In this document: positions 1 through 19,130 of the stretch, in pieces | Layout of the letters: each line of letters starts with the position of its first letter | How positions within the stretch are numbered: position 1 is the stretch's first letter | The notes under the pieces: model-generated | The model's database searches: none | The model's input: the letters and a program-made list of their open reading frames with translations, nothing else | What the model was told of the DNA's origin: nothing | Assembly (NCBI RefSeq): GCF_000009705.1 | Contig: NC_003272.1 | Span: 1,410,001-1,442,000, forward strand | Direction: 5' to 3' | Length of the DNA stretch: 32,000 nt | DNA from: Nostoc sp. PCC 7120 = FACHB-418 | GTDB taxonomy: Bacteria > Cyanobacteriota > Cyanobacteriia > Cyanobacteriales > Nostocaceae | Position numbers and translations under genes: made by a program

Positions 1-2
1 GA

Positions 3-155
3 CCACAAAGGTTTAGTGGTATAGAGGTATTGGGAAAAAACTTAGATGAGTCGGCAATGAGACAGACTTTGGCAGATTGCTATTTAACAGATGTAGCGAT
101 CGCACAATACCAAGAACAGGTAACACAAATTTTACTAGAGGAGGGTAGCGAGTGA
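3..155 (+). CDS. 3' end of an ORF truncated by the window edge; product unknown
   Basis: Frame 3 is open from the window edge (PQRFSGIEVLGKNLDES...LLEEGSE*) to TGA 153-155. The stop overlaps the GTG start of the next gene in a GTGA junction (152-155), the geometry of translational coupling. No family recognised. Confidence 0.35.
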   Translation, partial: PQRFSGIEVLGKNLDESAMRQTLADCYLTDVAIAQYQEQVTQILLEEGSE

Positions 156-964
156 AAATAGCAGTTATGTCCTGCATTCATAGTAACTATGAGGCGTTAG
201 ATGCAGTTTTGTTAGATATTGACCAACAAAAAGCCGACCAAATCTATTGTCTGGGTGACTTAGTAGGATACGGGCCATATCCCAATGCTGTAGTTACCCA
301 AATTCGCTCATTAGATATTCCCACCTGTGTCGGCTGTTGGGATGAAGATATTGTGGAAGGTTTAAACTCTTGTGACTGTAGTTACCCTTCACTGTTAGCG
401 GAAAAACGCGGTAAACTTGCTCACGAATGGACACATAAAGAACTCCATCAAGAAAACCAAGAATTTCTTGCCCAATTACCCCACACCTTACGTCAAGACA
501 ACTTGGTTTTTGTTCATGGTAGTCCCCAGAGTAACCACGAGTATCTGTTACCAGAACTTGACGCTTTTGCCGCCTTAGAAAGAGTATTTTCCACAGACGC
601 AGATGTACTATTTTGTGGACATACTCATGTACCTTATGTCCGTACCCTAGATGCAGGTAGTTTACAAGTCTCCGTCAAAGGTATGGGAATAGAACAGAAA
701 GAAATTAACTTTTCTGCTTCAGTAAAACGAATCGTCAATGTAGGTTCAGTGGGAGAACCCAGACACGGGCGACCAAATGCCACCTACGCTATTTATGATA
801 CAGATACTCAAGAAGTAAATCTCAGAGAAGTACCTTACAACTATCAAAAAACCTGCGCCGCCATCATCGAACAAGGTTTACCCCCCATCTTTGCTTGGCG
901 TTTAGCCCAAGGCTTGGAATATGCAGAAAGGGCTGATGACCCCACTCATGTTTGTACTCGATGA
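152..964 (+). CDS. Metallophosphoesterase-fold protein (YfcE/MJ0936-like) with non-canonical metal-ligand positions
   Basis: 270-aa ORF with a GTG start a few nt after GGAGGG. Calcineurin-like phosphoesterase blocks appear in order: SCIHSN (block I, normally SDIHGN), CLGDLVGYGP (GD block), VGCWDED (normally GN(H/Y)DE), VHGSP, CGHTH, VGSVGEPR. Confidence 0.8.
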   Translation: MKIAVMSCIHSNYEALDAVLLDIDQQKADQIYCLGDLVGYGPYPNAVVTQIRSLDIPTCVGCWDEDIVEGLNSCDCSYPSLLAEKRGKLAHEWTHKELHQENQEFLAQLPHTLRQDNLVFVHGSPQSNHEYLLPELDAFAALERVFSTDADVLFCGHTHVPYVRTLDAGSLQVSVKGMGIEQKEINFSASVKRIVNVGSVGEPRHGRPNATYAIYDTDTQEVNLREVPYNYQKTCAAIIEQGLPPIFAWRLAQGLEYAERADDPTHVCTR

Positions 965-1068
965 AGGATATAGGGGATTAGGGATTGGTCAATAGTCTAT
1001 GGTTCTCTTGTCTCCTTACATCCCTAAAGCTTTTTGCAAAAAATAAATTATAAAATCGCAGAATTATT

Positions 1069-1821
1069 ATGAATAAATGGGCAATTTTAAGCGGTATTGA
1101 GGGCAATTTGGCAGCTTATGAGGCTGTAATGGCAGATATTAAGCGCCAAAGTAAACAGATAGAAGCTTTATATATTTTGGGTGATTTGGTGGGGCCAAGA
1201 CCAGAAGTGGAAAAAGTTGTAGAACGAGTCCGCAACCCACTAAACGGTGAGTTAGAACCTCTGGTTTGTAAAGGTTGGTGGGAAGAACAGTGCTTCATTT
1301 TGCATGGTCTTGGCCCCACTGGCGAGGCTGATGATTTACTAGTGCAGTATGGCGGAGAAACAGTTAAGTTACTTTGGGATTCTGTTTCTCGTCAAACGGT
1401 GCAATGGTTAAGAACTCTAGATTTTGGTTTTTTTGAACTAGATTGTTTATTAATTCACGGTACAACTGTATCAATTGATGAAGCATTAACTCCCGATACT
1501 TCACCAATTCAAATGCTTGACCGCCTGACAAGAATGCAGGCAAATAATTTATTTTGCGGTCGTTCTGGTTTAGCTTTTCAATATCACCTTCAAGCTGGTT
1601 CAGTAACTACAGGTATCACAACTCTTGATAGTCCAAAATCCCCGGAAACTATGACCATTTCTCCGCGCCAGATAATTGGAGTGGGTAATGTAGGTAGAAC
1701 ACCAGGTGTAGCAACATACACTCTCTATACTCCCGCTACAAACCATGTAGAATTTAAAACTATCCGTTATGGTATTGGTCAAGGATTTCAGCGTAATTCT
1801 GTTAAAGCTATCTCATCTTAA
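1069..1821 (+). CDS. Degenerate metallophosphoesterase paralog (probable pseudo-enzyme)
   Basis: 250-aa ORF 104 nt downstream of the previous gene. Same block order but ligand positions replaced: SGIEGN, ILGDLVGPRP, CKGWWEEQ, IHGTT, CGRSG (in place of GHTH), VGNVGRTP. Confidence 0.7.
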   Translation: MNKWAILSGIEGNLAAYEAVMADIKRQSKQIEALYILGDLVGPRPEVEKVVERVRNPLNGELEPLVCKGWWEEQCFILHGLGPTGEADDLLVQYGGETVKLLWDSVSRQTVQWLRTLDFGFFELDCLLIHGTTVSIDEALTPDTSPIQMLDRLTRMQANNLFCGRSGLAFQYHLQAGSVTTGITTLDSPKSPETMTISPRQIIGVGNVGRTPGVATYTLYTPATNHVEFKTIRYGIGQGFQRNSVKAISS

Positions 1822-1882
1822 AGTGAGTTATGCCAAATTAATATGAAGCTGCATAGAATAATTGAATGCAGATGCACGCAGC

Positions 1883-1924
1883 GAAAAGTTCTGTAGGAGG
1901 GTTTCCCTCCGTAGGAAACTTTTC
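1883..1924. repeat. Dispersed hairpin module (GAAAAGTT-CTGTAGGAGGG-TTT-CCCTCCGTAGG-AAACTTTTC)
   Basis: Imperfect inverted repeat just downstream of the second phosphoesterase gene. CTACG/CGTAG-type hairpin modules recur at 2571-2725, 14838-14925, 22990-23060, 26770-26825 and 29445-29525. It may also act as a terminator. Confidence 0.5.
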
Positions 1925-2135
1925 AAGACAGAGAAACGCGGATAAATCAACGGATTTTATTTTCTGGTGTTCCCTAAAATAACTATAAGCACGTCGGATG
2001 ATTTTGCATCTATCCTGCGTAGTAAATATATAAGTTTGATTTCTGTCTCCAGATTTATGAATAATTAGCGGACAGTGCTTATAGTTAAGTTCTTAGGTGA
2101 GGCTAAACCTAGTCACGCAAGTGAGGCTAAAAATC

Positions 2136-2210
2136 ATGTTACTTAAATATTTGTATTTGCATTGTTTCTCAATCAATGATTGGTTCAATTGCAATTACCA
2201 TTCTGAATAA
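2136..2210 (+). CDS. Candidate 24-aa micro-ORF (MLLKYLYLHCFSINDWFNCNYHSE)
   Basis: The ATG lies 9 nt after AAGTGAGG (2119-2126). This is the same extended SD context (AAGTGAGG-N8/9-ATG) seen at the precursor genes at 8141 and 8674. No GG leader and no family recognised. Confidence 0.2.
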   Translation: MLLKYLYLHCFSINDWFNCNYHSE

Positions 2211-2570
2211 ATCTTCATGTTAGAGGTTTGCTTTTTAAGATTCCCTAGTTAGCACCGTAAATTTGGGGATTTTAAGCTAACAGGCTTTTAAATTACCTAT
2301 TTTTTGTGGTCAGAGTAAATGTCTGGGATTTACTATAAATTTCGACTGTTAACTCTAGATTAACCATAAGATAGTAGGCAACTGATATCTGTTTGCTTGT
2401 ATGTGGAGTATATGCACTGTAAAGTGGGCATCTTGTCCGCCTAGTATCTCCCAGTGAAACTTGCAACAGCTTCTTAAATCAATCTATAGTCTTGTGTGTG
2501 AGTTAACCTAATTCTGGAAAATACTCTAGAAAACGGAACTGAAACAACGTGAGTTCGACGGTTGGAACAA

Positions 2571-2725
2571 CCCCTCTCCATAGCTTGCTACTCTACGAGT
2601 TCTCCGTAGGAGTACCCGTAGGGTACCTCCCCTGCAAGGAGAAAGGCTTTAAAACCTTTATTTTTTTCGATATTTCATGCTCTTTACTCCCCTCTCCGCG
2701 TCGGAGAGGGGTTGGGGGAGAGGTC
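2571..2725. repeat. Cluster of short dispersed hairpin modules
   Basis: Contains CTCTACGAG...CGTAGG, GTACCCGTAGGGTAC and CCTCTCCGCGTCGGAGAGGGGTTGGGGGAGAGG. These are related to internal modules of the MITE at 9781 and 25635 (CCTCTCTCCGCTTCGGGGAGAGG, GGTTGGGGG). Confidence 0.5.
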
Positions 2726-3294
2726 AAAAAAGACTTGTTGAACTCCTAAGAAAACAGCAAGTTTTCTTTCGCCCTTCCAGTGGGTGCGTCTTCGTTGGAG
2801 ACTCACGTTGAAACAGAATTTTTTGATCAGACTATATAACAGATGACCACTTCCCTCTCTGGTTTTGCTACAGCTTCCTTTGTTGAATAAGGATATAGCT
2901 TTGTTCATGCTGCAAGTTGTTCTTGCTTGCAATGCAAACAAAATTTCCCATGTGTATATTGTGGAAAAAGGGGTAGAGGAGGTGATAATAACTCGCTCAA
3001 CGTAAGTGAGGTTTTTGAGGGAGTTTGAGCGTTCTCCTCTATATTTCTCCACACGTTATCCGCGTTAGAGATTCCAGAAAAGTAAGCACATCTCAAAGCA
3101 CATTCTTTTCTTATTCCCCATATCTTATTATAGCCAATTTGGAACATAAATTGGAGAGAAGAGAAAAATGTTTGTATCAATCTGCAAACTAAAATTAACT
3201 CATCAACCCATGAATAACAGCGTCTATAAGAATAACCAAACACATCATTTAACAGCCTAATTTCTATCATATTCATATACCAAGGTGCAGTATC

Positions 3295-5427
3295 GTGAAC
3301 ACCTTACGCCGCCAAGAGAATGATTTTTGGCATCGATCGCATCAGCCAATTCCCGAAGAACTTCCTACCTTGGAAGCTAACGAATTTTTACCCCATATTG
3401 GGAAATGGACAAGTATCGGTGGGGTAGTTGTCTTCAGTATCTTTATTGTGGGGGTGGTGCTAACATCTGTTCTCAAGTACAACGTGACGGTGAAAGTGCC
3501 GGCGACTATTCGCCCTGTGGGAGAATTAAGGCTGGTACAGTCGCTAATTAATGGCAAAATTCTCAAGATTAGTGTTGCAGAAAATCAGATGGTAGCCGAA
3601 GGACAAGCGATCGCCTACATTGATGATTCCCGCCTCCAGACTCAAAAGAGCCAGTTACAAAACCTCATCCAGCAAAGTCAACTACAACTCAATAAAATCG
3701 ATGCACAGTTGGGAGAAATCGACGCTCAAATTACAGCACAGACAAATTTAAACGATCGCACCACAATCGCTGCACAAGCTGAACTGAGTGGTACACAACG
3801 CAACTATGCCGATCAGCAAGTGAAAGCTACGGCGGATATGACACAAGCACAATCAGCCTTAACTTTAGCCAGGATCCAAAAAGACCGCCTGCAACGGGAA
3901 AAGCTGTTAACGGCGACTGTGCGAGAAACAGAAGCCGCTTTGCAGTTAGCCAGGGTGCAAAGCGATCGCCTACAACGGGAAAAGCTGCTAAAAACTACCG
4001 TAGATGAAGCGGAAAGAGGCTTAAAATTGGCGAGAGAACAACGCGATCGTTTACGACGGGATAGGCTTCTCAGGACGACTGTGCAAGAAACACAGACGGC
4101 TTTGAACTTAGCAAAGGCGCAACAAGAAAGATTACAAAGGGAACAACTCTTAGCCAAAACTGTGCAGGAAGCAGAAACCGCTTTAAATTTAGCCAGGGTA
4201 CAACGCGATCGCCTACAACAAGATAGAGTTTTAACTGCAACTGTCCAAGAAGCAGAAGCCGCCTTGAGTTTAGCTAGAGTACAGCGAGAAAGATTACAGC
4301 CGATAGTAGCATCAGGAGCGATCGCCCGTAGTTTCTTCGAGGAAAAAGACCAAGCCGTAATATCGGCGGAGGCGAGGCTGGAACAAGCCAAAGCTAACGC
4401 TAAAAATCTGCTGGAAGAGAAAGAACAAGCGGTGATTGCGGCGGAGGCGAAGTTGGAACAAGCCAAAGCCAACGCCAAAAATCTTTTGGAGGAGAAAGAA
4501 CAGGCTGTCAAATCAGCAGAAGCGAAGCTAGAACAAGCCAAAGCCAACGCTAAAAATCTCTTAGAAGAAAAAGACCAAGGGGTGATTGCGGCGGAGGCGA
4601 AACTGGAACAAGCCAAAGCCAACGCCAAAAATCTCTTAGAAGAGAAAGAACAAGAGGTGATTGCGGCGGAGGCGAAACTGGAACAAGCCAAAGCTAACGC
4701 CAAAAATCTCCAAGAAGAAAAAGACCAAGCTTTAACAGTGGCGCAAACAAATCTCGCCAAGGCCAGAACAGCGATAAATCCCAATGATGCTAACGTGACT
4801 GTAGCATCGGAACGAATTAAACAAGAACAAGCCAGGGGTGAAGTTACCTTAGCCGCCTTGAAAAAAGAAAGAGAAACTTTGCTACAACAACGCCTAGAAT
4901 TTCAAAAACAACTGGATAGAAACCGCAAAGAACTACAACAAGCCGAAAATGACTTAAAACAGAGTATAGTCCGCGCACCCATCGCCGGGACAGTGCTGCA
5001 ATTGAATTTGCGTAACCCTGGACAGGTAGTACAACCAAGTGAGGCGATCGCTCAAATTGCGCCGTTAAATGCACCAATACAGATCAAAGCTAACGTCCAG
5101 GCGCAAGATATCAACAAAGTCAAACCCGGTCAACAAGTCCAAATGCAGGTTTCTGCTTGTCCCTATCCAGACTACGGCACTCTCAAAGGAACAGTCAAAA
5201 CAATCGCCCCAGATGCCCTACCCGTAGCCAACAATAACCCACAGACCACCACAGCTAAAGCCACAGCCTATGAAGTCATTGTAGAACCACAAACCCCATA
5301 CGTTGGTAGAGGCGATCGGCAATGTCAACTTAAAACCGGGATGCAGGGTAAAGCAGATATTATTTCCCGTCGAGAAACAGTATTACGCTTCATCCTCCGC
5401 AAAGCCAGATTAATTGCAGATTTGTAA
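3295..5427 (+). CDS. HlyD-family membrane-fusion (periplasmic adaptor) protein with a greatly expanded coiled-coil
   Basis: 710-aa ORF with a GTG start. It has an N-terminal TM helix (WTSIGGVVVFSIFIVGVVLTSVL), lipoyl-like halves (KILKISVAENQMVAEGQAIAYID ... RAPIAGTVLQLNLRNPGQVVQPSEAIAQIAP) and a C-terminal beta-barrel-like region. About 300 aa of Q/R/E/A/K/L-rich repeats lie in between. It sits directly upstream of an ABC exporter. Confidence 0.85.
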   Translation: MNTLRRQENDFWHRSHQPIPEELPTLEANEFLPHIGKWTSIGGVVVFSIFIVGVVLTSVLKYNVTVKVPATIRPVGELRLVQSLINGKILKISVAENQMVAEGQAIAYIDDSRLQTQKSQLQNLIQQSQLQLNKIDAQLGEIDAQITAQTNLNDRTTIAAQAELSGTQRNYADQQVKATADMTQAQSALTLARIQKDRLQREKLLTATVRETEAALQLARVQSDRLQREKLLKTTVDEAERGLKLAREQRDRLRRDRLLRTTVQETQTALNLAKAQQERLQREQLLAKTVQEAETALNLARVQRDRLQQDRVLTATVQEAEAALSLARVQRERLQPIVASGAIARSFFEEKDQAVISAEARLEQAKANAKNLLEEKEQAVIAAEAKLEQAKANAKNLLEEKEQAVKSAEAKLEQAKANAKNLLEEKDQGVIAAEAKLEQAKANAKNLLEEKEQEVIAAEAKLEQAKANAKNLQEEKDQALTVAQTNLAKARTAINPNDANVTVASERIKQEQARGEVTLAALKKERETLLQQRLEFQKQLDRNRKELQQAENDLKQSIVRAPIAGTVLQLNLRNPGQVVQPSEAIAQIAPLNAPIQIKANVQAQDINKVKPGQQVQMQVSACPYPDYGTLKGTVKTIAPDALPVANNNPQTTTAKATAYEVIVEPQTPYVGRGDRQCQLKTGMQGKADIISRRETVLRFILRKARLIADL
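3859..4302 (+). repeat. In-frame tandem array A within hlyD: 5.5 units of 81 nt (27 aa)
   Basis: Units: LTLARIQKDRLQREKLLTATVRETEAA / LQLARVQSDRLQREKLLKTTVDEAERG / LKLAREQRDRLRRDRLLRTTVQETQTA / LNLAKAQQERLQREQLLAKTVQEAETA / LNLARVQRDRLQQDRVLTATVQEAEAA / LSLARVQRERLQP. Confidence 0.9.
4339..4776 (+). repeat. In-frame tandem array B within hlyD: 5 near-identical units of 75 nt (25 aa) plus one degenerate unit
   Basis: EEK(E/D)QAVIAAEAKLEQAKANAKNLL occurs five times, followed by EEKDQALTVAQTNLAKARTAI. Differences between units are mostly synonymous. Confidence 0.9.
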
Positions 5428-5442
5428 TTAGTTATTGGTCAA

Positions 5443-5545
5443 TAGTCATTAGTCCATAGTCCATAGTCAATTTTCTTCCCCCTACACCCCTGCACCTAAA
5501 AAACTCCGCGTACCTCCGCGCTAGCCTCCGTATTCCTCTGCGTTT
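5443..5545. repeat. STRR heptamers (TAGTCAT/TAGTCCA x4) followed by about 10-nt tandem units (CTCCGCGTAC, CTCCGCGCTAG, CCTCCGTATT, CCTCTGCGTTT)
   Basis: Read directly in the 143-nt hlyD-ABC spacer. Confidence 0.7.
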
Positions 5546-5570
5546 AAAAAAGCCAAAATTACAAATTAAT

Positions 5571-7739
5571 ATGCTTAATTTCTTCAAACTCCGAAAAAAT
5601 TACCCCTGTGTTTTACAGTTGAGTGAAGAAGATTGTGGAGCCGCTTGTATAGTTTCCATTTGTCGGCAACACGGACGCTTTTTAAGTATGAATAAAAGCC
5701 GTGAAGCAGTAGGGACTGGACAACTGGGTACAACCTTATTAGGTCTAAAACGTGGCTCAGAAAATCTCGGTTTTAATGCCAGAGCCGTGAAAGCATCCCC
5801 CGCCATCTTAGACAGAATTAAAGAAATTCAACTACCAGCAATTATTCATTGGCGGGGCTATCACTGGGTAGTTTTATATGGCAAAAAGGGAAGCAAATAT
5901 GTCATAGCTGATCCAGCCGTAGGCATTCGTTATATTCACCGGGAAGAGTTAACAGCCGCCTGGAATGGGGTCATGCTATTAATGGAGCCAGATCACCAGC
6001 GTTTTTCTCAACAGCCCCACGACAAACCACAGCCAGGATTTACCCGCTTTCTTCAGCGCATCTTGCCCTATCATGGGCTATTGTCCCAGGTTTTTATGAT
6101 CAACATTGTCCTGGGTATATTGGCTTTAGGCTCACCAGTCCTGATTCAAATCCTCACCGATGATGTCTTAGTTCGTGGCGATACTCAACTACTAACTGTG
6201 ATAGCGATCGCTGTCATCATCATGAATTTATTTAGTAGTGGTATGCAGGTATTAGAATCTACGATGATTGCCCATTTTAGCCAACGCCTGCAATTAGGTT
6301 TAGTCTTGGAATTTGGGCGGAGAATTCTGCAATTACCATTGACTTATTACGAAGCTCGTCGCAGTGGAGAGATTACCAGCCGACTTAGAGATATTAATGA
6401 AATTAACCAATTAGTCTCGCAAGTGGTAGTGCTTTTACCTAGCCAATTTTTCATAGCTGTAATTTCTTTTGGCTTAATGCTTTTTTATAGTTGGCAGTTA
6501 GCATTAGCGGTAATCCTCATCGGTGCATTGATGAGTTTAGCTACATTGCCGCTTTTACCAGTCCTGCAACAAAAAACTCGTAGTCTTTTAGTTTTAGGTT
6601 CAGAAAATCAAGGCGTGTTAGTAGAAACTTTTAAAGGCGCACAAGTACTTAAAACTACAAATGCTGCACCGCAATTTTGGGATGAATTACAAAATCGTTT
6701 TGGTCGTCTGGCAAATTTAACATTTAGTACTATTCAAATTGGCATTATCAACAATACTATTGCGAAATTTCTCTCTGCTATCGGCGGTGTAGTTTTATTA
6801 GGGCTAGGGAGTATTTTAGTTATCCAAGGAAAGTTAAGTATTGGTCAAATGTTAGCAATTAATGTACTACAAGTTAATGTATTGACATTAATTAGCTCAC
6901 TAGTAGGTTTAGTAGATGAATATTTTCGTTCCCAAACTGCTATCTCTCGGCTTTTGGAAGTGATTGATGCTACTCCCGAAGTAGATAATACTTCTCAAAA
7001 ACCATTCGCCCAAATCTCTAGTGATGCAGACATTCGTTTTTCACATATCAACTTTCACCATCCTGGTAGAGTTGACCTCTTGGAAGATTTTTCTCTCAAG
7101 CTACCAGGAGGACAAATTATAGCTTTAATTGGCAAGTCAGGCTGTGGTAAAAGTTCCTTAGCCAAACTCATGGCAGGATTATATCAGCCCAATTCTGGTA
7201 ATATCCGCATCGGCTTTTATAATATTCAAGATATTGCCCTTGATTGTTTACGGCAACAAGTAGTTTATGTACCTCAAGAACCTCATTTCTGGAGTCGTTC
7301 AATTTTAGAAAACTTTCGTTTAGGAAGTCCCCATATTTCCTTTGAAGAAGTCGTCACAGCTTGCCAAATTGCCGATGCTGATAGTTTTATTAGCCAACTA
7401 CCAAATAAGTATCAAACAGTGCTAGGAGAATTTGGAGCAAATCTTTCTGGAGGACAAAAACAAAGACTAGCGATCGCCAGAGGTATTCTCAATAATCCCC
7501 CAGTCCTAATTTTAGATGAAGCAACAGCCGGACTAGACCCAGTTAGTGAAACTCAAGTCCTTGATCGGTTGTTAGAATCACGTCAAGGTAAAACTACAAT
7601 TCTCATTACCCATCGTCCCAGCGTAGTCCACCGCGCTGATTGGATTGTATTACTTGATCAAGGCAAAATACAACTCCAAGGTAATTTAGAAGATTTCCTG
7701 TCTCAACAAGGAGAGCATCTAAAGTTTTTATCTCTATAA
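5571..7739 (+). CDS. Peptidase-C39-domain ABC transporter (double-glycine leader cleaving bacteriocin/peptide exporter)
   Basis: 722-aa ORF. N-terminal C39 motifs: LSEEDCGAACI (catalytic Cys), GYHWVVLYG (His), VIADPA. A multi-helix TM domain follows. NBD motifs: Walker A GKSGCGKSS, signature LSGGQKQRLAIARG, Walker B VLILDEAT, H-loop ILITHR. Confidence 0.9.
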   Translation: MLNFFKLRKNYPCVLQLSEEDCGAACIVSICRQHGRFLSMNKSREAVGTGQLGTTLLGLKRGSENLGFNARAVKASPAILDRIKEIQLPAIIHWRGYHWVVLYGKKGSKYVIADPAVGIRYIHREELTAAWNGVMLLMEPDHQRFSQQPHDKPQPGFTRFLQRILPYHGLLSQVFMINIVLGILALGSPVLIQILTDDVLVRGDTQLLTVIAIAVIIMNLFSSGMQVLESTMIAHFSQRLQLGLVLEFGRRILQLPLTYYEARRSGEITSRLRDINEINQLVSQVVVLLPSQFFIAVISFGLMLFYSWQLALAVILIGALMSLATLPLLPVLQQKTRSLLVLGSENQGVLVETFKGAQVLKTTNAAPQFWDELQNRFGRLANLTFSTIQIGIINNTIAKFLSAIGGVVLLGLGSILVIQGKLSIGQMLAINVLQVNVLTLISSLVGLVDEYFRSQTAISRLLEVIDATPEVDNTSQKPFAQISSDADIRFSHINFHHPGRVDLLEDFSLKLPGGQIIALIGKSGCGKSSLAKLMAGLYQPNSGNIRIGFYNIQDIALDCLRQQVVYVPQEPHFWSRSILENFRLGSPHISFEEVVTACQIADADSFISQLPNKYQTVLGEFGANLSGGQKQRLAIARGILNNPPVLILDEATAGLDPVSETQVLDRLLESRQGKTTILITHRPSVVHRADWIVLLDQGKIQLQGNLEDFLSQQGEHLKFLSL

Positions 7740-8008
7740 ATATTATTTTTAGTTATAGAAAATATAGTAGGTTGTAATTTACCAATAAAGATACGGCAAA
7801 GTTGAAATTTTATTTATAAAGTAGTGATTAAATTACTTTATTAAGCACCCATTATAGCTTATGGGGTACATATTTTGGCACTTAAAGAGTTGTATTAATA
7901 GCTAAAAGCTCATAAGCAAAATAAACTGATTACAGGGATGTGGCTAATCACATTCCTGTATTTTTGCACCCTTGATTTATATGGAAGTTATATTTTATGA
8001 TCAAAATA

Positions 8009-8131
8009 TCATGAGTCAAAAGTAGTAAAATTTATTTTTATAAATACTACTACAGAATAATTTAAATAAACAAGTGATATTGAATAATAAAAACATAGGT
8101 AATAACAAACCTATGTTGTACGTAAGTGAGG
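8009..8131 (+). promoter_or_regulatory. Conserved upstream cassette of precursor gene 1
   Basis: Blocks TCATGAGTCAAAAG (8009-8022), AGAATAATTTAAA (8054-8066) and ATATTGAA (8077-8084). Hairpin CATAGGT-N8-ACCTATG (8094-8115). AAGTGAGG SD (8124-8131). The same blocks recur at identical spacing upstream of gene 2. Confidence 0.55.
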
Positions 8132-8140
8132 TAAAAGTTC

Positions 8141-8329
8141 ATGTCAAACCAAATGCTAGCTTCTAATTTACTTGAAGATTTATCCTTAGATCAACAGCAA
8201 TCTTTGGCTGGTGGTCAAACCTTTGATGATGGAGATGATGAAGGCGGAAATACACGACTTGGCACTGGTGAAACTCGTCGCTATAGAATTAGAAGTGTCA
8301 GCATCGTTAGTGTCCGCAAATTGTCATAG
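8141..8329 (+). CDS. Double-glycine-leader precursor peptide 1 (25-aa leader + 37-aa core)
   Basis: MSNQMLASNLLEDLSLDQQQSLAGG | QTFDDGDDEGGNTRLGTGETRRYRIRSVSIVSVRKLS. Strong SD 9 nt upstream. The leader is shared with two neighbouring ORFs. The gene lies downstream of a C39-ABC exporter and has its own terminator. Confidence 0.8.
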   Translation: MSNQMLASNLLEDLSLDQQQSLAGGQTFDDGDDEGGNTRLGTGETRRYRIRSVSIVSVRKLS

Positions 8330-8424
8330 TTAGTGGTGAATGGAGTGAACTGAAATAAACCGCTCAAAGCCTAATTGTATTTGAGCATTTCTACACCATC
8401 TCCTATTTTCTGCTAAATATAATT

Positions 8425-8457
8425 AAGCTAGGTACTAATAATACCTAGCTTTTTTTG
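8425..8457 (+). terminator. Rho-independent terminator of precursor gene 1
   Basis: Perfect 10-bp stem AAGCTAGGTA / TACCTAGCTT, 7-nt loop, then a T-run. Confidence 0.75.
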
Positions 8458-8545
8458 GCGAGAAAATCACATATTTTTGTTCTTGATTAAAGTATAATAT
8501 TTTAGATTTAAATCTAAAATAGTAACTTCACTTAAAAGATTATTT

Positions 8546-8665
8546 TCATGAGTCAAAAGCTAGATTTTTAATATTAAATTATCCGACCAAAGAATAATTT
8601 AAAATATATGTAAATATTGAACAATTAAATTATCAGGTGTTAGACACCTATGTGATTAAGTGAGG
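8546..8665 (+). promoter_or_regulatory. Conserved upstream cassette of precursor gene 2
   Basis: TCATGAGTCAAAAG (8546-8559), AGAATAATTTAAA (8591-8603) and ATATTGAA (8614-8621). Hairpin AGGTGT-N3-ACACCT (8635-8649). AAGTGAGG SD (8658-8665). Block 1 to block 2 is 45 nt and block 2 to block 3 is 23 nt, exactly as in cassette 1. Confidence 0.55.
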
Positions 8666-8673
8666 TAAAAAAT

Positions 8674-8961
8674 ATGTCTAATCAAACCGTTGCATCTAAT
8701 TTGTTGGCAGATTTATCCACAGAACAACAGCAGTTTCTGGTGGGTGGTCAGCAAACAACTCAACCACGACAAGGTCAAGGTGGTTGTCCGGGTGGTATGG
8801 GTATGGGTTCTGGTGGTATGGGTATGGGTTCTGGTGGTACTGATCAAGATAGCTGGGATCAAAATGGCTATGATCAGGAAGGGGGTGGCTCTGGAGGTAG
8901 CTTCGGTAGTCGCCGTCGCCGCTTGCGAGTAAGACTTTCCGGCTACGTCTATCTCAGATAA
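8674..8961 (+). CDS. Double-glycine-leader precursor peptide 2 (25-aa leader + 70-aa Gly-rich core)
   Basis: MSNQTVASNLLADLSTEQQQFLVGG | QQTTQPRQGQGGCPGGMGMGSGGMGMGSGGTDQDSWDQNGYDQEGGGSGGSFGSRRRRLRVRLSGYVYLR. SD 8 nt upstream. This frame was chosen over overlapping ORFs because it carries the conserved leader. Confidence 0.8.
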   Translation: MSNQTVASNLLADLSTEQQQFLVGGQQTTQPRQGQGGCPGGMGMGSGGMGMGSGGTDQDSWDQNGYDQEGGGSGGSFGSRRRRLRVRLSGYVYLR

Positions 8962-9125
8962 ATCGGTAAATTTTAAAAGTAGGCTCTGATGAGCCATTAA
9001 ACTTGCACTATTGTTCATACAAGGTAAATGTTCTCAAACCTTGTAGTCAGCATTTAGACACTCTGTTTCTTTGTTGTCCTGACTAGTGCAATCAGAACAC
9101 TAACTATATTGGATTTTTGCTCAAC

Positions 9126-9156
9126 AGCCAGTTTCTTCGAGGAACTGGCTTTTTTG
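9126..9156 (+). terminator. Rho-independent terminator, probably ending the precursor gene 2 transcript
   Basis: Stem AGCCAGTT / AACTGGCT, 9-nt loop, followed by TTTTTT. Confidence 0.6.
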
Positions 9157-9484
9157 AATTTAAAATTACTTTTTGAGGATAAAATTTTCAGCCATAGTCT
9201 ATTAATAATGCAGTACAAATATATTATTTTTGCATCAAAATCTAAATTCAAAAATAAAATATTATTTGTATTTATACCTGCAATAATTACAAAAAGATAA
9301 GTAAAAATATCATACTTCTTAAGCATGATATTTAGTATTTTTATTTCCACCTCTAGGGGAGTTTAATTTGTCAAAATTCTTCCTATAAATAGAATCAAAG
9401 TATTACATATTTATGGTTCCCGTCCATATTTGTGTAAACCTTCTAGGCGTGTACAAATAATAGATAGAACAGAGGAAAAGAATC

Positions 9485-9691
9485 ATGTCAAATCAAGTTT
9501 GGCAATCCGATTTACTCGTGGAACTATCCACAGAAGACCAGCAAAATCTAGCTGGAGGTCGCTGGGGTCATTTCGGTGGTTTCGGTGGTTTCCGGGGTCG
9601 CTCTTGGTTTAGAACAGGCAGGTTCTGGGGAGGTCGCTCTTGGTTCAGACCAGGTGGTTTCCGGGGTCGCTGGGGTGGTTACTGGAGATAA
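9485..9691 (+). CDS. Double-glycine-leader precursor peptide 3 (25-aa leader + 43-aa Gly/Arg/Trp/Phe core)
   Basis: MSNQVWQSDLLVELSTEDQQNLAGG | RWGHFGGFGGFRGRSWFRTGRFWGGRSWFRPGGFRGRWGGYWR. GAGGAAAAG SD 9 nt upstream and own terminator. Confidence 0.8.
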   Translation: MSNQVWQSDLLVELSTEDQQNLAGGRWGHFGGFGGFRGRSWFRTGRFWGGRSWFRPGGFRGRWGGYWR

Positions 9692-9730
9692 TTGCCTGAA
9701 GCTCATCGATAGAAGCTTATTGGCTATGAT

Positions 9731-9770
9731 GACAAGTCTTGATTTATCGTAAATCAGACTTGTCTTTTTG
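9731..9770 (+). terminator. Rho-independent terminator of precursor gene 3
   Basis: About 15-bp stem GACAAGTCT(T)GATTTA / TAAATCAGACTTGTC with a short loop, followed by TTTTT. Confidence 0.75.
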
Positions 9771-9780
9771 CTATTTATAA

Positions 9781-9960
9781 CGCCGTGTGCAACTTTCTCT
9801 CAAACCTAACCCCCAACCCCTTCCCTGCAAGGGAAGGGGAGCAAGATTCAAAGCCTCTCTCCGCTTGCCTAACGGCAGGCTAACGCCAACGGGGAGAGGT
9901 ACTCTACGAGAAGCGCTCCGCGCTATGGAGAGAGGTTTCAAAAATAAGTTGCACATCGCG
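9781..9960 (+). mobile_element. MITE-like element, copy A (180 bp, with two nested insertions)
   Basis: Termini CGCCGTGTGCAACTT ... AAGTTGCACATCGCG form a 15-nt imperfect TIR. Copy A equals the reverse complement of 25635-25767, apart from extra segments GCCTAACGGCAGGCTAACGCCAA and ACTCTACGAGAAGCGCTCCGCGCTAT. Confidence 0.75.
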
Positions 9961-9979
9961 TTATTTATATTAAAAATAA

Positions 9980-10906
9980 TTACCCAATTGTCTGGGAATT
10001 ATGCTCAATTTCTTGGGATTCTAAAAGCCTAGTTTGTTCCCATATCCAATCTTGTAAAATTGGATTAACTAATTCAGGAGCTTCATCTTGAGGACAATGC
10101 CCTACACCTTCCAAGGGAATAAACTTGAGGACTTGAGGATAGTTGGCTAATTCTCGACCTAAATCTATCGGTTCCCAAGGATCATTTGTCCCCCACACAA
10201 TCAATGCTGGACAGGGTAGCAATGGTAAAAGGTCTTCTGGTAAGGGGCCAGAAGAATAGGAAGTAAAGGCAAGGAATACAGCCGCAGCACCAGGATCACT
10301 GGCTGGTACTGTCAAAATATCTACCAGTTCCTCTGTCACTGCTTCGCTATTAATGTAGGCTTGTAGCAGAATCTTTCTCACTGTTTTTGGTTGCGCGACT
10401 TGACGGAAAAAAAACTGACCAATTGCTTTAATAGATAGTACGCGTTGCAGCACAGGCGCGCCAAAACGACGTGACCAAGGTAGAGTTTCCCGTTTGCGAT
10501 CGTGCAGTAATCGTAGAGAACAGTTGAGTAAGGCAACACTTAAACTAATCTCTGGATTGCTGACTGCTGCTTGCATCACTACAATACAGCCAATAGAGTT
10601 ACCCACTAAAAAAGCTGGTTCACCGACAATCTCACGGCAAAAATCCGCTACTTGTTCTCCCCAAGTTTCTAGTGTATAGGCCATTTCCGTATCTGGTTGA
10701 GGTTTGGCTGAACCACCAAAACCAATTAAATCGATTGCATAAACACGGCAATTTTCCGCTAGTACGGGTATATTTTTTCGCCAGTGTCCCCAAGAAGCAC
10801 CAAAACCATGTACGAGTACAACAGATGGCCCAGTAGTTCCTTGTGTTTGATAGCAGATGGGGAAGCCTCGCCAAATCCAGGTTTTTGTAGAAGTAGAAGT
10901 ATTCAT
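9980..10906 (-). CDS. Alpha/beta-fold hydrolase
   Basis: 308-aa ORF. Motifs: HGFGASWGHWRKN (oxyanion region), nucleophile elbow GNSIG, C-terminal GVGHCPQDE (catalytic His). Confidence 0.8.
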   Translation of the reverse strand: MNTSTSTKTWIWRGFPICYQTQGTTGPSVVLVHGFGASWGHWRKNIPVLAENCRVYAIDLIGFGGSAKPQPDTEMAYTLETWGEQVADFCREIVGEPAFLVGNSIGCIVVMQAAVSNPEISLSVALLNCSLRLLHDRKRETLPWSRRFGAPVLQRVLSIKAIGQFFFRQVAQPKTVRKILLQAYINSEAVTEELVDILTVPASDPGAAAVFLAFTSYSSGPLPEDLLPLLPCPALIVWGTNDPWEPIDLGRELANYPQVLKFIPLEGVGHCPQDEAPELVNPILQDWIWEQTRLLESQEIEHNSQTIG

Positions 10907-11667
10907 GAGAATTTAAAAATAGCTGAAGATATTAAAGAAAAAGATTGTACCTCTAGAGTTAGAGTGTAGTTATTTTGCTGAACAAATCCTGGGGATACTC
11001 CCTCCTTATGGAAAAACTCATAACCCTGAAAGAAACTCAGCTACCTGTTAGTATTGTGTACAAAAGAACAAAAGCAGCAATTTCTACAGCACTGAGATTT
11101 TTGTCAAGTTAGAAATCAATAAACAAAAATTCCACAACAAGAGTGTGAAATTTTTTATTTCCCATTTCTTCTTTTTTATTGCCTATACCTTATTTTCAAC
11201 TCAGAGCATGGACGCAATCAAGGGATTAATAAAAATTATCACACAGATGCCAGTAGCAATAGTCTAATCTCTGAGGTTTAACATGGGCATTATTGATTTT
11301 CTTATTTATATGTAGGTACGGGCTTGACTAATAAAAATCAAGGTGGGTTGAGATATTATTAACTTAAGCTTATTAGTTTATAGATATTATGTAATAGTTT
11401 TCTTAGATGAACTTAGTTCTATCTTCATATTTTTATTTATGGCTCATGAATAACACAATTTGAATATTTTTACACAAGATTATGAAGTTAATACAAGATA
11501 ATGGAATAAGCATCCGCATAAATTCAGTAATTTTACAATTTACGGGCTTGAAGTTAGCCCATAAAATGTACTGGATACAAAGCATCTACTAATAGGTGAG
11601 CTAAACCTAAACGCTAAGGTTAAATTTCACCTAGATTTTTGTTCCTAGTGCAGGCTGGCTAAAGAAA

Positions 11668-12222
11668 ATGACCATACTAGAAACAAGTAACACTCCTGTT
11701 GGTGGTTACGCGCCAGATTTTGAATTACCAGGGATTGATAATCAAGTCCATCATCTCAGTCGTTATTTAGATAATTTTCGCGCAGTTGGCGTAGTTTCTT
11801 TGGGGAATTACTGCTCTTATGTAAATTTATATCTAGACCGGTTAAAAGGCATTCAAGGGGAATTTGGGACGGATGGCTTTATCTTAATTGGCATAAATGC
11901 TAGTGACATTACCGAGCCAAGTTGGTCAAGCTTAGAGAAAATGAAAGCCTTTGCCCAAAATCACGAGTTAAACTTTCCTTACCTGTGGGATTCGACCCAA
12001 GAAGTTAGCAGAAGCTTTGGCGCTACTAAAACACCGATCGCCTTCTTGATCGACAGTCATGGTATATTGCGATATAGAGGGCAGATTGACAATCATCCTC
12101 AAGAGCCATCATCTGTAGGTGAAGACTACCTGCGAAATGCGATCGCTGCTCTGTTTAAAGGCGAAGAAATCCTAGTACCTGAGACGGAACCAGTAGGCAC
12201 TTCATTGATCTGGCGTATATAG
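11668..12222 (+). CDS. Thioredoxin-fold (AhpC/TSA-redoxin-like) protein with a degenerate CxxC
   Basis: 184-aa ORF. N-terminal PVGGYAPDFELPGIDNQVHHLS, then NFPYLWDSTQEVSRSFGATKTPIAFLID, typical of this family. The active-site position reads GNYCSY rather than the CNHCPY I recall for relatives. Confidence 0.65.
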   Translation: MTILETSNTPVGGYAPDFELPGIDNQVHHLSRYLDNFRAVGVVSLGNYCSYVNLYLDRLKGIQGEFGTDGFILIGINASDITEPSWSSLEKMKAFAQNHELNFPYLWDSTQEVSRSFGATKTPIAFLIDSHGILRYRGQIDNHPQEPSSVGEDYLRNAIAALFKGEEILVPETEPVGTSLIWRI

Positions 12223-17789: not shown

Positions 17790-19130
17790 TTAAACGCTAA
17801 CACTATCAGTAATACAGGTCTTTATCAGTTCTTCAACACCTGCTATTGGTAAGATTTTGGTTTGTAATTGCCGAGCTACTTCTTCAACACTCATATCATC
17901 TAAAAAAACTAATTCTCCATGTTTGAGCATGACATTAGGTAGCAAAATGCCTCCACCTAAATCCTGTTCTTTTAAGTGTAAAAGTAAATCGTGTCCAGTA
18001 ATTAACCCGGTAACACTAATAGTTTGTCCCCAGTAATCACTAGATAAAGCACGCATATTTATTTCTAATCCTTCCACCGCATTTAAGCTTTTGAGAATTG
18101 GTTGAAAGGCTTTTTCTACAGCATTACCAACAACCCAAGTTAACTTTTTGGGATGGTTGATTTTTGCTGGTAATAATTCCGCCGCAGTCTCAGCAAATTG
18201 TTTGAGAAATAACCTAATTGAACCTACACCATTATCAATTTGGGGGTATTCTTCGTACTCAGCTTCGCTAGGTAATTCCTCACCCGCAATCAAAAACCAT
18301 TCGTCTGCTAACCAAGCCACATTAGAACCAAATTGTCGGCGAAATTCTTGAGTTAGCGATCGCACCTGTGCAATCACTTCTTGGGCTTTCTCTCTAGTTA
18401 CAGGTATAAGTTCGTCTTCTTCAGGACGAAATCTTGTTAACCCGACTGGTACAACTGCCACTGAGGCAACGGTAGGCACATCCCTATCATGAAATGACGC
18501 TAAATCCCGTAGTGTTTGTTCCAGATGTTTGCCATCATTTATACCAGGACACACAACTACTTGAGCATGGATTTGCAGCCTTCTGGTTTGAAACCACCGC
18601 AACTGGTCTAATATTTGCGCCGCACGGGTATTTTTCAGCAGTCTAATTCTCACTTCCGGTTCCGTCGCATGAACGGATACATATAAGGGAGACAGACGCA
18701 TTTGTTCAATCCGTTGCCACTCCCTTTCCGGTAAATTGGTGAGAGTTAGATAAGAGCCGTATAAAAAACTTAACCGATAATCATCATCTTTTAAATACAG
18801 GCTAGAACGCTTACCTGGGGGTTGTTGGTCAATAAAACAAAACGGACAACGATTATTGCACTGAATTAGACCATCAAACAAAGCCGTTTCAAACTCTAAC
18901 CCCAGGTCTTCGTCGTAGTCTTTCTCAATTTCGATATGATGAGTTTTGCCAGAAGCGTCTAAAACCTCCAATTCCAGGAACTCATCAGAGCATAAAAATT
19001 TATAATCAATTAAATCGCGGGGCTGTACACCATTAATAGCTACAAGCGCATCCCCCGCTTCAAAGCCAATCTCAGCAGCTATAGAATCAGGTAGTACTTT
19101 GGTGATACGGGCGGGAAGAATAGCAGCCAT
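17790..19130 (-). CDS. PDZ + radical-SAM-like Fe-S protein (DUF512 family, cyanobacterial)
   Basis: 446-aa ORF. N-terminal PDZ-like GFEAGDALVAINGVQPRDLIDY, a CX3CX2C cluster motif CNNRCPFCF, and a long conserved C-terminal region. Confidence 0.7.
   Translation of the reverse strand: MAAILPARITKVLPDSIAAEIGFEAGDALVAINGVQPRDLIDYKFLCSDEFLELEVLDASGKTHHIEIEKDYDEDLGLEFETALFDGLIQCNNRCPFCFIDQQPPGKRSSLYLKDDDYRLSFLYGSYLTLTNLPEREWQRIEQMRLSPLYVSVHATEPEVRIRLLKNTRAAQILDQLRWFQTRRLQIHAQVVVCPGINDGKHLEQTLRDLASFHDRDVPTVASVAVVPVGLTRFRPEEDELIPVTREKAQEVIAQVRSLTQEFRRQFGSNVAWLADEWFLIAGEELPSEAEYEEYPQIDNGVGSIRLFLKQFAETAAELLPAKINHPKKLTWVVGNAVEKAFQPILKSLNAVEGLEINMRALSSDYWGQTISVTGLITGHDLLLHLKEQDLGGGILLPNVMLKHGELVFLDDMSVEEVARQLQTKILPIAGVEELIKTCITDSVSV

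Follow-up and report, generated by a model that had tools for sequence, protein, structure and literature searches.

A 32,000-nucleotide stretch of the Nostoc sp. PCC 7120 chromosome (NC_003272.1, positions 1,410,001 to 1,442,000, forward strand; hereafter the window) was analysed for a cluster of genes encoding a HlyD-family adaptor, a peptidase-containing ATP-binding cassette (ABC) transporter (PCAT) and three short double-glycine (GG) precursors, referred to as cargos 1 to 3. We are fairly confident that this region is alr1200-alr1201-asr1202-asr1203-asr1204, a "group III" GG peptide secretion locus, and it is highly probable from the sequence that the transporter would cleave and export the three cargos. 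The genes and the elements that accompany them are listed below in window coordinates (aa, amino acids; ORF, open reading frame).

3295..5427, + strand: alr1200, HlyD-family membrane-fusion (adaptor) protein of 710 aa with an expanded helical hairpin (Pfam)
4334..4730, + strand: 75-bp tandem repeat (x5.3) inside hlyD, coding for 25-aa units LEEKEQAVIAAEAKLEQAKANAKNL in the second hairpin arm (Tandem Repeats Finder, translation)
5571..7739, + strand: alr1201, PCAT of 722 aa (Pfam, PCAT1/ComA match, catalytic residues)
7931..7965, + strand: intrinsic-terminator-like hairpin and T run 3' of alr1201 (-17.7 kcal/mol, z -3.9)
8141..8329, + strand: asr1202 (cargo 1), 62-aa precursor with a 37-aa core (ORF list, Wang Table S3)
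8425..8457, + strand: terminator-like hairpin and T run 3' of asr1202 (-12.9 kcal/mol)
8674..8961, + strand: asr1203 (cargo 2), 95-aa precursor with a 70-aa core (ORF list, Wang Table S3)
9126..9156, + strand: terminator-like hairpin and T run 3' of asr1203 (-17.3 kcal/mol)
9485..9691, + strand: asr1204 (cargo 3), 68-aa precursor with a 43-aa core (ORF list, Wang Table S3)
9731..9770, + strand: terminator-like bulged hairpin and T run 3' of asr1204 (-16.6 kcal/mol, z -5.4)

Adding 1,410,000 to the window coordinates of the cargo ORFs gives the BA000019 positions listed in precursor Table S3 of Wang, Fewer and Sivonen 2011 (PLoS One 6:e22384) for the group III precursors asr1202 (1418141..1418329, 62 aa), asr1203 (1418674..1418961, 95 aa) and asr1204 (1419485..1419691, 68 aa); the adaptor is therefore alr1200 and the exporter alr1201. 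In their definition, a group III cluster combines a C39 ABC transporter of the short type with HlyD and an array of precursors, and has no modifying enzymes. The locus contains a short C39 ABC transporter without a CAP_ED domain, a HlyD protein and adjacent GG precursors, and lacks SurA, LanM, an S8 peptidase and a second ABC transporter. It shows no structural difference from the group III clusters of Wang et al., and its precursor coordinates and lengths are identical to theirs.

The locus is thus already known: it has been annotated, it was catalogued in 2011, and the asr1202 cluster was discussed in a 2025 New Phytologist paper as one of the three best Anabaena candidates for an EbfG/PteB-like biofilm system (PMC12267927). 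It is real and conserved across heterocyst-forming cyanobacteria. The novelty implied by an initial annotation of this DNA has to be given up, these exact genes being annotated already and having been catalogued in 2011.

Transport genes and cargo precursors

Pfam analysis of Alr1201 revealed Peptidase_C39 (aa 11-141, E 1e-34), ABC_membrane (175-435) and ABC_tran (504-653) domains, so that the peptidase, transmembrane and ATPase domains of a PCAT are found in one chain. The protein matches PCAT1 (4ry2) over its full length (E 1e-111) as well as ComA, and its N-terminal 150 residues align with the peptidase domains of PCAT1 (7n87/4ry2), ComA and LahT. In these alignments Gln16, Cys22 (EEDCGAAC), His97 (GYHWVVL) and Asp113 (IADPAVG) fall on the catalytic positions of PCAT1 (dCGAAC, aHfvv, aDPgkG), and the Cys, His and Asp are thus all present together with the oxyanion Gln. 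It is the catalytic triad with the oxyanion Gln that tells an active C39 domain apart from inactive C39-like ones, for example the domain of HlyB. Also intact are the Walker A motif (GKSGCGKSS), the ABC signature (LSGGQKQR) and the Walker B motif (LILDEAT). The domains and aligned residues bear out the hlyD-like gene and the 722-aa exporter with an apparently active C39 peptidase that had first been described here.

Alr1200 contains HlyD_3, HlyD_D23 and Biotin_lipoyl_2 domains (Pfam), and NCBIfam HlyD-type models match it below their cut-offs. Alr1201 also scores below the NCBIfam cut-offs for TIGR01193 (bacteriocin_ABC, 399.8 against 523.85 bits) and TIGR03796 (NHLM ABC1, 434.8 against 853.3). 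Judged by architecture and active site, the two proteins are members of their families and not equivalogs of the named NCBIfam subfamilies. Comparison with Nostoc parmelioides gave ratios of nonsynonymous to synonymous differences (pN/pS) of 0.03 for hlyD and 0.03 for the exporter gene, indicating strong purifying selection.

AlphaFold2 prediction of Alr1200 from the single sequence, with no alignment, yielded helices at residues 182-334 and 342-489 with predicted local distance difference test (pLDDT) values of 70-86; since overall confidence was low (mean pLDDT 56, predicted TM score 0.27), these two long helices alone are usable. The lengths of HlyD adaptors are quantised in 78 Nostocales orthologs, at ~502, 524, 553, 606, 665 and 709 aa, and the longest of these forms is that of PCC 7120. 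The series 502-553-606-(~660)-709 rises in steps of ~52 aa, with ~524 standing outside it, and each step equals one 27-aa plus one 25-aa unit, drawn from two repeat arrays that flank a Pro/Gly tip (about 3850-4300 and 4334-4730 in the window). This suggests that both arms of the modelled helical hairpin may lengthen together.

Each cargo gene is preceded by GAGG 8-9 nt 5' of its ATG, and the terminator hairpins of the ABC gene and the three cargo genes have z-scores of -3 to -5.4. The hairpin behind asr1204 was overlooked by a simple hairpin scan because of its bulge. The spacers have 25-29% GC against 41-53% in the ORFs, and HIP1 sites (GCGATCGC), of which there are 29 in the whole window, are absent from 7471-12138 (4.7 kb). 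Both the cargo slot and the adjacent gene for the alpha/beta hydrolase fall within this HIP1-free interval. The individual Shine-Dalgarno sequence, AT-rich HIP1-free upstream region and terminator that the initial annotation had assigned to each short ORF are therefore all in place.

All three leaders are exactly 25 aa long, extending from MSNQ to GG, and the sequences diverge beyond the GG, just as had been noted for these ORFs of 62, 95 and 68 aa. A six-frame regular-expression search and a leader hidden Markov model (HMM) detected no further GG-leader ORFs in the 32-kb window. CDS21 of Wang et al. (2549-2749) was considered as a fourth cargo and rejected; it has no leader-HMM match, sits on a repeat-like element (…CTCCCCTCTCCGCGTCGGAGAGGGGTTGGGGGAGAGGT…) and is kept in the closest relative alone. 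Given the missing GG-leader HMM match, CDS21 is in all likelihood not a genuine gene. A repeat resembling this one, and likewise coding for Gly/Pro, occurs 3' of asr1204, at about 9790-9960.

For comparison, 529 relatives of the exporter were found in a one-genome-per-species scan, and the loci counts given in this text refer to the best 80 of them (L001-L080). Leaders encoded downstream of the exporter in these loci are 25 aa long in 153 of 182 cases, with near-invariant S-18, L-16, L-12, S-11, Q-7, L-4, G-2 and G-1; the HMM was seeded with the window's own leaders, and these counts lean towards that pattern. The Gln-Gln pair at -8/-7, initially taken as a deviation from the canonical leader, proved to have two different distributions, Gln at -7 being family-wide (182/182) and Gln at -8 limited to the PCC 7120 strain group, with Glu in 63% of relatives.

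The leader HMM searches proposed along with the initial annotation were carried out. With NF038167 (CTB family bacteriocin, cut-off 32 bits) the cargos score 20.4, 20.0 and 23.4 bits, and the matched model positions, 1-27, are those of the leader. Membership in this family (a 72-position model, at least 32 bits) thus does not extend to the three cargos; control upstream precursors of other Nostocales score 61-84 bits. Models of Nif11 (N11P) and NHLP leaders gave no match to the cargos (Pfam at E up to 0.1, NCBIfam at E up to 1). This contradicts Table S3 of Wang et al. 2011, where asr1202 is labelled N11P and asr1203 and asr1204 NHLP, labels that current Pfam and NCBIfam models do not support.

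The core of asr1202 has an acidic N-part and a basic tail RRYRIRSVSIVSVRKLS, with a predicted unmodified mass of 4142.5 Da and a net charge of ~+1. That of asr1203 comprises Gly/Met repeats, an acidic stretch and a tail RRRRLRVRLSGYVYLR (predicted mass 7289.8 Da, net charge ~+3), and a perfect 21-bp tandem repeat (x2.3) at 8791-8839 encodes its GGMGMGS units. This region shows an indel and a different repeat number in comparison with N. parmelioides; core length therefore varies by repeat slippage. Gly, Arg, Trp and Phe are abundant in the asr1204 core, which has a net charge of ~+10, a pI of 12 and a predicted mass of 5198.8 Da. The cores match no Pfam or NCBIfam family, in keeping with the first impression that they resemble no familiar bacteriocin family. 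A search of a 5.8-billion-protein collection with asr1202 returned three matches, all to unnamed proteins, from N. parmelioides, Anabaena subtropica and one metagenome fragment.

Cargo 1 (RRYRIRSVSIVSVRK) and cargo 2 (RRLRVRLSGYVYLR) have in common a basic alternating-strand tail at the C-terminus. The cargo 1 family extends over 11 species, in which an acidic spacer is followed by a basic alternating tail (e.g. TRVYRISSTGLVRVRRVR), and is usually encoded by the first gene in the slot. Cargo 2 follows the same plan, with an acidic or Gly-rich spacer before the tail, and cargo 3 belongs to a Gly/aromatic/basic low-complexity class accounting for 37 of 181 downstream cores. The initial description of three unrelated cargos thus holds for their divergence after the GG, and fails for the tail common to cargos 1 and 2 and for the recurrent classes to which cargos 1 and 3 belong.

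The cargo ORFs are ~97% identical at the DNA level to those of N. parmelioides, whereas flanks and intergenic DNA are 78-81% identical. Their pN/pS values in this comparison are 0.07, 0.26 and 0.21 for cargos 1, 2 and 3, respectively, at a synonymous divergence of ~0.15 and with small substitution counts. Since the identity exceeds that of the flanks and pN/pS is below 0.3, the cargo genes are under purifying selection. These figures leave a very slim chance that the short ORFs are untranslated, non-functional remnants, for which the existence of a decayed leader ORF upstream (2136-2210) might be cited; the ribosome-binding sites, leaders and terminators are also intact. Moreover, asr1202 was induced 11-fold in PCC 7120 biofilms (2026 transcriptome, PMC13156569), which speaks against the possibility, raised at the outset, that the ORFs are not transcribed.

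We propose that each cargo gene would be expressed from its own promoter and end at its own terminator; as the hlyD-ABC pair also has a terminator, cargo expression would be uncoupled from that pair. The 25-residue leader (consensus MSxQxIxSDLLVELSTEEQQLLSGG) would dock in the N-terminal C39 domain of an Alr1201 dimer and be cut after Gly24-Gly25 by Cys22, His97 and Asp113, with Gln16 as the oxyanion residue. Powered by ATP hydrolysis, the core would then pass through Alr1201, the adaptor Alr1200 and an outer-membrane channel of the TolC type, encoded elsewhere and in PCC 7120 probably HgdD (Alr2887), and three apparently unmodified peptides of 37, 70 and 43 residues would be released outside the cell. 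Several points weigh against this scheme. Gln at -7 stands where the classical LSxxELxxIxGG leader has a hydrophobic residue, and recognition of the leader by the C39 domain is therefore an assumption. Both transport proteins fall under the NCBIfam curated cut-offs for named bacteriocin and type I secretion subfamilies, and the cleavage, the export and the unmodified state of the peptides are all deduced from homology.

Diderm exporters of this type need a TolC-like outer-membrane channel. No outer-membrane factor gene was found in the window, and a complete tripartite type I-like system (ABC transporter, adaptor and outer-membrane factor) is accordingly not encoded there. Synechococcus elongatus also requires EbfE, a C39 peptidase distinct from the exporter; its PCC 7120 homologue, All5219 (74% identical), lies elsewhere (PMC12267927). 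Of the self-contained, complete module claimed at first, the adaptor, the exporter and the three GG cargos stand, but the locus is not self-contained, because the window encodes no such channel, and the EbfE homologue is not linked to it.

Domain scans of the window revealed no LanM, cyclodehydratase or other tailoring domain, confirming an earlier statement to that effect. This argues against the peptides being precursors of ribosomally made peptides with post-translational modifications (RiPPs) that are modified before export by enzymes encoded outside the locus, an explanation that we regard as improbable. It would draw on the ability of stand-alone LanM enzymes to act on distant precursors (Wang et al. 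2011), on the Gly/Ser-rich cores, with one Cys in asr1203, and on a radical-SAM-like DUF512 gene ~8 kb downstream (17790-19130). The leaders, however, do not match the Nif11/NHLP models that accompany such enzymes, and at 25 aa they are short for a modifying-enzyme recognition sequence; asr1202 and asr1204 contain no Cys, and asr1204 offers no more than two Ser and one Thr as sites for a Ser/Thr modification.

The remainder of the window is otherwise housekeeping, with glycosyl-hydrolase-like, DUF512/radical-SAM-like, IS110 transposase, UppP, DUF3120, PsbU, aspartate-oxidase-like flavoprotein, CHASE2-PAS-GGDEF, VKOR and BtpA genes. The PDZ/radical-SAM-like/DUF512 gene (17790-19130), the IS110-family transposase (19475-20437) and the CHASE2-PAS-GGDEF diguanylate cyclase gene (26855-29074) lie 8-19 kb downstream of the export locus.

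Comparative picture and role of the peptides

The best 80 of the 529 exporter relatives are all from cyanobacteria, nearly all of them Nostocales, and are 75-99% identical over the full length; the exporter is kept in the obligate fern symbiont Trichormus azollae. Fifty of the 80 loci occupy the same chromosomal site, where an opposite-strand alpha/beta hydrolase marks the downstream flank, and a thioredoxin-like gene, pyrH, frr and a geranylgeranyl-reductase-like gene come next downstream in 30-42 loci; for the hydrolase, pyrH and frr the number of loci is 42-50. The upstream flank, consisting of two metallophosphoesterase-like genes, is common to PCC 7120 and N. parmelioides alone. The slot between exporter and hydrolase measures 1.2-5.0 kb (median 2.2 kb) and, in the 66 loci with enough downstream sequence, holds 0-7 leader-bearing genes, mostly 2-3. 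The 181 downstream cores form 89 sequence clusters, 64 of which are singletons. The comparison of syntenic loci for cargo turnover suggested at the outset has therefore returned a fixed exporter site with a changing set of cargos.

No immunity-like or regulatory gene is conserved in the 50 syntenic slots, where the other conserved ORFs either encode additional proteins with GG or AG leaders or are shadows antisense to cargo genes. The initial annotation had reported that the locus lacks an immunity gene, and this extends to the syntenic loci; the linked immunity gene that characterises class II bacteriocins and microcins is missing from them.

A conserved ~105-aa GG/AG-leader protein is encoded directly after the exporter stop codon in at least 41 loci, about half of the total (e.g. 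L007:12200-12517). Its leader is of a slightly different type (..LSEEEQESLxGGQ..NFFFQKTDIETEA..TKYxLSQIT..LFS). Neither this protein nor a remnant of it was detected by tblastn in the window at 7740-8140, and the closest relatives of PCC 7120 lack it too.

By analogy with EbfG/PteB of S. elongatus, we tentatively suggest that the cargos may be self-directed surface, matrix or adhesion peptides, and we lean towards such a role above that of classical killing bacteriocins. Alr1201 is reported to be 55.8% identical to PteB, and asr1202 is the gene induced 11-fold in biofilm. The 50 slots contain no immunity-like ORF, and the locus shows core-genome-like inheritance and is kept in the symbiont. 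The core sequences also appear prone to aggregation. Other observations count against a matrix role. At +10 and rich in Trp, Arg and Gly, asr1204 has the appearance of a cationic antimicrobial peptide; no Anabaena homologue of EbfG was detected by BLASTP (PMC12267927); the biofilm induction comes from a single transcriptome and concerns asr1202 only (PMC13156569); and hypervariable cargo sets (89 clusters and 64 singletons among 181 cores) are what an arms race predicts.

Hypervariability of the repertoire even among close relatives would suit classical unmodified (class II or microcin-like) bacteriocins directed against related cyanobacteria, with immunity encoded elsewhere or intrinsic, as would the strongly cationic, Trp/Arg/Gly-rich asr1204. 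The NCBI name of the related family is "CTB family bacteriocin", the CTB genes of Nodularia are induced under phosphate starvation, which has been interpreted as allelopathic, and bacteriocin production by filamentous cyanobacteria was historically reported (Flores and Wolk 1986, as related by a citing paper). We nevertheless consider this explanation somewhat unlikely. No immunity-like ORF is present at the locus or in the syntenic slots, and bacteriocin islands do not usually show an exporter conserved vertically at one site and retained by an obligate symbiont. The sole tested cyanobacterial group III system serves biofilm formation, and the literature searched held neither a report of antimicrobial activity of CTB-type peptides nor activity data for asr1202-1204.

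There is also a slim chance that the peptides serve as quorum or developmental signals or as pheromones, exported by the PCAT as ComC is by ComA. Gram-positive PCATs do export signalling peptides, Alr1201 matches ComA, and the related exporter HetC of PCC 7120 is reported to act in heterocyst differentiation (PMC10986499); the conserved cis-elements described below also suggest tight regulation. The locus and the syntenic slots contain no linked receptor kinase or response regulator, however, and long (37-70 aa), low-complexity, hypervariable cores are a poor fit to specific receptor recognition.

The value of the locus lies in the testable prediction of three secreted peptides, of 4142.5, 7289.8 and 5198.8 Da, for an organism amenable to genetics, in the combination of an exporter at a fixed Nostocales site, a fast-turning cargo slot and no immunity gene, and in conserved non-coding elements that provide a handle on the regulation of such loci. 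The second of these is relevant to the question of whether "cyanobacterial bacteriocins" act as antimicrobials in the first place.

Upstream region and conserved non-coding elements

The following elements were located in the gap upstream of hlyD and in front of the cargo genes (5'UTR, 5' untranslated region).

2000..2135, + strand: relic of a CTB-family precursor gene, comprising its promoter and 5'UTR (block conserved in 72/80 Nostocales loci)
2136..2210, + strand: decayed leader-coding ORF remnant of 24 codons, frameshifted with respect to MSxQI... leaders (alignment A4)
2974..3041, + strand: conserved hairpin 5' of hlyD ("Block 2", conserved about 2965-3085; 66/80 loci)
8061..8131, + strand: cargo 1 upstream region with promoter-like TTTAAA-16-AATAAT (8061-8088), hairpin (8092-8117) and CGTAAGTGAGG (8121-8131), matching the CTB-precursor 5' architecture elsewhere
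8635..8665, + strand: cargo 2 5'UTR with hairpin (8635-8649) and box TTAAGTGAGG (8656-8665) (motif and fold scans)
9368..9395, + strand: promoter-like TTGTCA-16-TAGAAT 5' of cargo 3 (consensus match only)

Many Nostocales carry one to six CTB-family precursor genes 5' of hlyD, with cores of the form ADFELxxSNFANR...NTAAQDLLGLG. The block at 2000-2135 contains a TATAGT -10-like box, an AGGT..ACCT hairpin and a GCAAGTGAGG box (2117-2126), and its counterpart in other loci runs up to the start codon (ATG) of the first precursor of the CTB family. Apart from a 1-nt deletion, the remnant at 2136-2210 aligns with the leader-coding starts of those loci; the GG-leader HMM does not match it, and tblastn found no CTB core remnant. 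When 55 CTB-type precursors were compared with the window by tblastn, the three cargo leaders alone were matched, and no CTB core remnant was found in the 1.47-kb gap. A 203-aa membrane protein encoded 5' of hlyD in some relatives is neither present in the window nor represented by a remnant (tblastn). Anabaena azotica (L006) has the same decayed form of the CTB 5' region as PCC 7120, and the CTB region of the other genomes contains an inverted repeat, CTACTT..AAGTAG, ~110 nt 5' of the ATG.

The exact 11-mer CGTAAGTGAGG occurs in ~120 copies in 61 of the 80 loci, always on the + strand, with sites ~20 nt 5' of CTB-precursor ATGs, ~20 nt 5' of downstream cargo ATGs and in the hlyD-upstream block. 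The window has exact copies at 3001-3011 and 8121-8131, and copies differing by one mismatch at 2117-2126 and 8656-8665. The 11-mer lengthens the GAGG ribosome-binding site, and the spacer DNA next to it is much less conserved. The 5'UTR of cargo 3 is different and lacks the CGTAAGTGAGG box. Between the TATAGT -10-like sequence and the box, the 5'UTRs of CTB and cargo genes contain a small hairpin (AGGTGG..CCACCT type), a few of whose changes are compensatory.

Block 2, ~60 nt of which are nearly invariant in 66 of the 80 loci, is predicted to fold into a hairpin (minimum free energy -28.6 kcal/mol, z -3.3) with helices P1 (GAGAGGAG/CTCCTCT) and P2 (ACTCGCTCAA/TTGAGGGAGT) and an apical loop containing CGTAAGTGAGG (3001-3011). 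On the alignment 89% of cells are paired, compared with 42-66% when the partners are slid, and seven pairs are changed on both sides, a number reached by 1/500 shuffles, including A-U to G-C in seven sequences; the structure was taken from single-sequence folds and then counted on the alignment, a procedure that leans towards structure. The G-U pairs favour the + strand. The consensus obtained with RNAalifold was weak (-10.6 kcal/mol, covariation term -0.23), owing to the near absence of sequence variation. Since the structure derives from one of the aligned sequences and variation is scarce, the covariation support for the predicted hairpin is only moderate. An alternative inner helix (CGCTCAA with TTGAGCG) was rejected by eye, variants in L071 and L020 breaking the pairing without compensation. 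Block 2 also contains three TGAG(G/C) repeats at 10-nt spacing. An Rfam scan of 1-12000 (E up to 1) returned two chance-level matches, to RsaE and a human lncRNA model, and no known RNA family.

Flaherty et al. 2011 recorded abundant leftward RNA-seq reads between alr1199 and alr1200. On the minus strand of this gap (1822-3294) no Rfam family or ORF that would explain them was found.

Regulation in trans is suggested by the strongly conserved cis-elements that precede hlyD and cargo genes 1 and 2. An earlier statement that the locus has no regulator is right in that none is encoded there, and has to be qualified for these elements. Perhaps the exporter operon and the cargo genes form one post-transcriptionally controlled regulon, although we think this unlikely. 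The loop of the Block 2 hairpin would display the 11-nt box CGUAAGUGAGG, which in CTB-type and downstream cargo genes makes up the extended ribosome-binding site. Pump and cargo would then be adjusted jointly by a single factor acting in trans, be it a small RNA or an RNA-binding protein. If so, the locus would represent a core Nostocales pathway secreting envelope or matrix peptides and not a bacteriocin island, with new cargos arising through core swaps behind a fixed promoter/5'UTR/leader cassette. The box shared by cargo 5'UTRs, the hairpin upstream of hlyD and the ~52-aa adaptor steps are possibly new side observations.

Comparison with known systems

The EbfG1-4/PteB/HlyD system of S. 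elongatus PCC 7942 (Parnasa et al. 2016) is likewise of group III, with GG proteins adjoining a C39 exporter and HlyD. There PteB is required for EbfG secretion and biofilm formation, and its catalytic Cys is needed for secretion. Systems of this type are characterised by an exporter and GG proteins on which the biofilm depends, and by secreted proteins that form matrix amyloid. The gene order is reversed, ebfG1-4 being upstream of pteB in one polycistronic transcript, whereas the Nostoc cargo genes are downstream of the exporter and have a terminator each. The Nostoc cores show no sequence similarity to EbfG by BLASTP (PMC12267927).

The CTB precursors (NF038167), such as those of Nodularia spumigena CCY9414, which are induced by phosphate starvation, have the same leader type as the cargos (S-18..L-12 S-11..Q-7..L-4xGG) and the same 5'UTR architecture, in which the CGTAAGTGAGG box comes after a hairpin. 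The CTB genes of most Nostocales lie just 5' of the orthologous hlyD, where PCC 7120 keeps a decayed 5' remnant only, and the three cargos of the window do not possess the conserved CTB core ADFELxxSNFANR...NTAAQDLLGLG.

PCAT1 of Clostridium thermocellum, ComA of Streptococcus, LahT and CvaB have the same domain order and catalytic Cys/His/Asp as Alr1201. In PCAT1, ComA, LahT and CvaAB-TolC, GG cleavage is coupled to export, and diderms combine the exporter with an adaptor and TolC, as with CvaB/CvaA/TolC for colicin V. The Nostoc locus differs from PCAT1, ComA, LahT and CvaB in the invariant Gln at -7 in place of a hydrophobic residue and in having no linked immunity gene, and Alr1200 is set apart from the adaptors of such systems by its unusually long, repeat-built helical hairpin.

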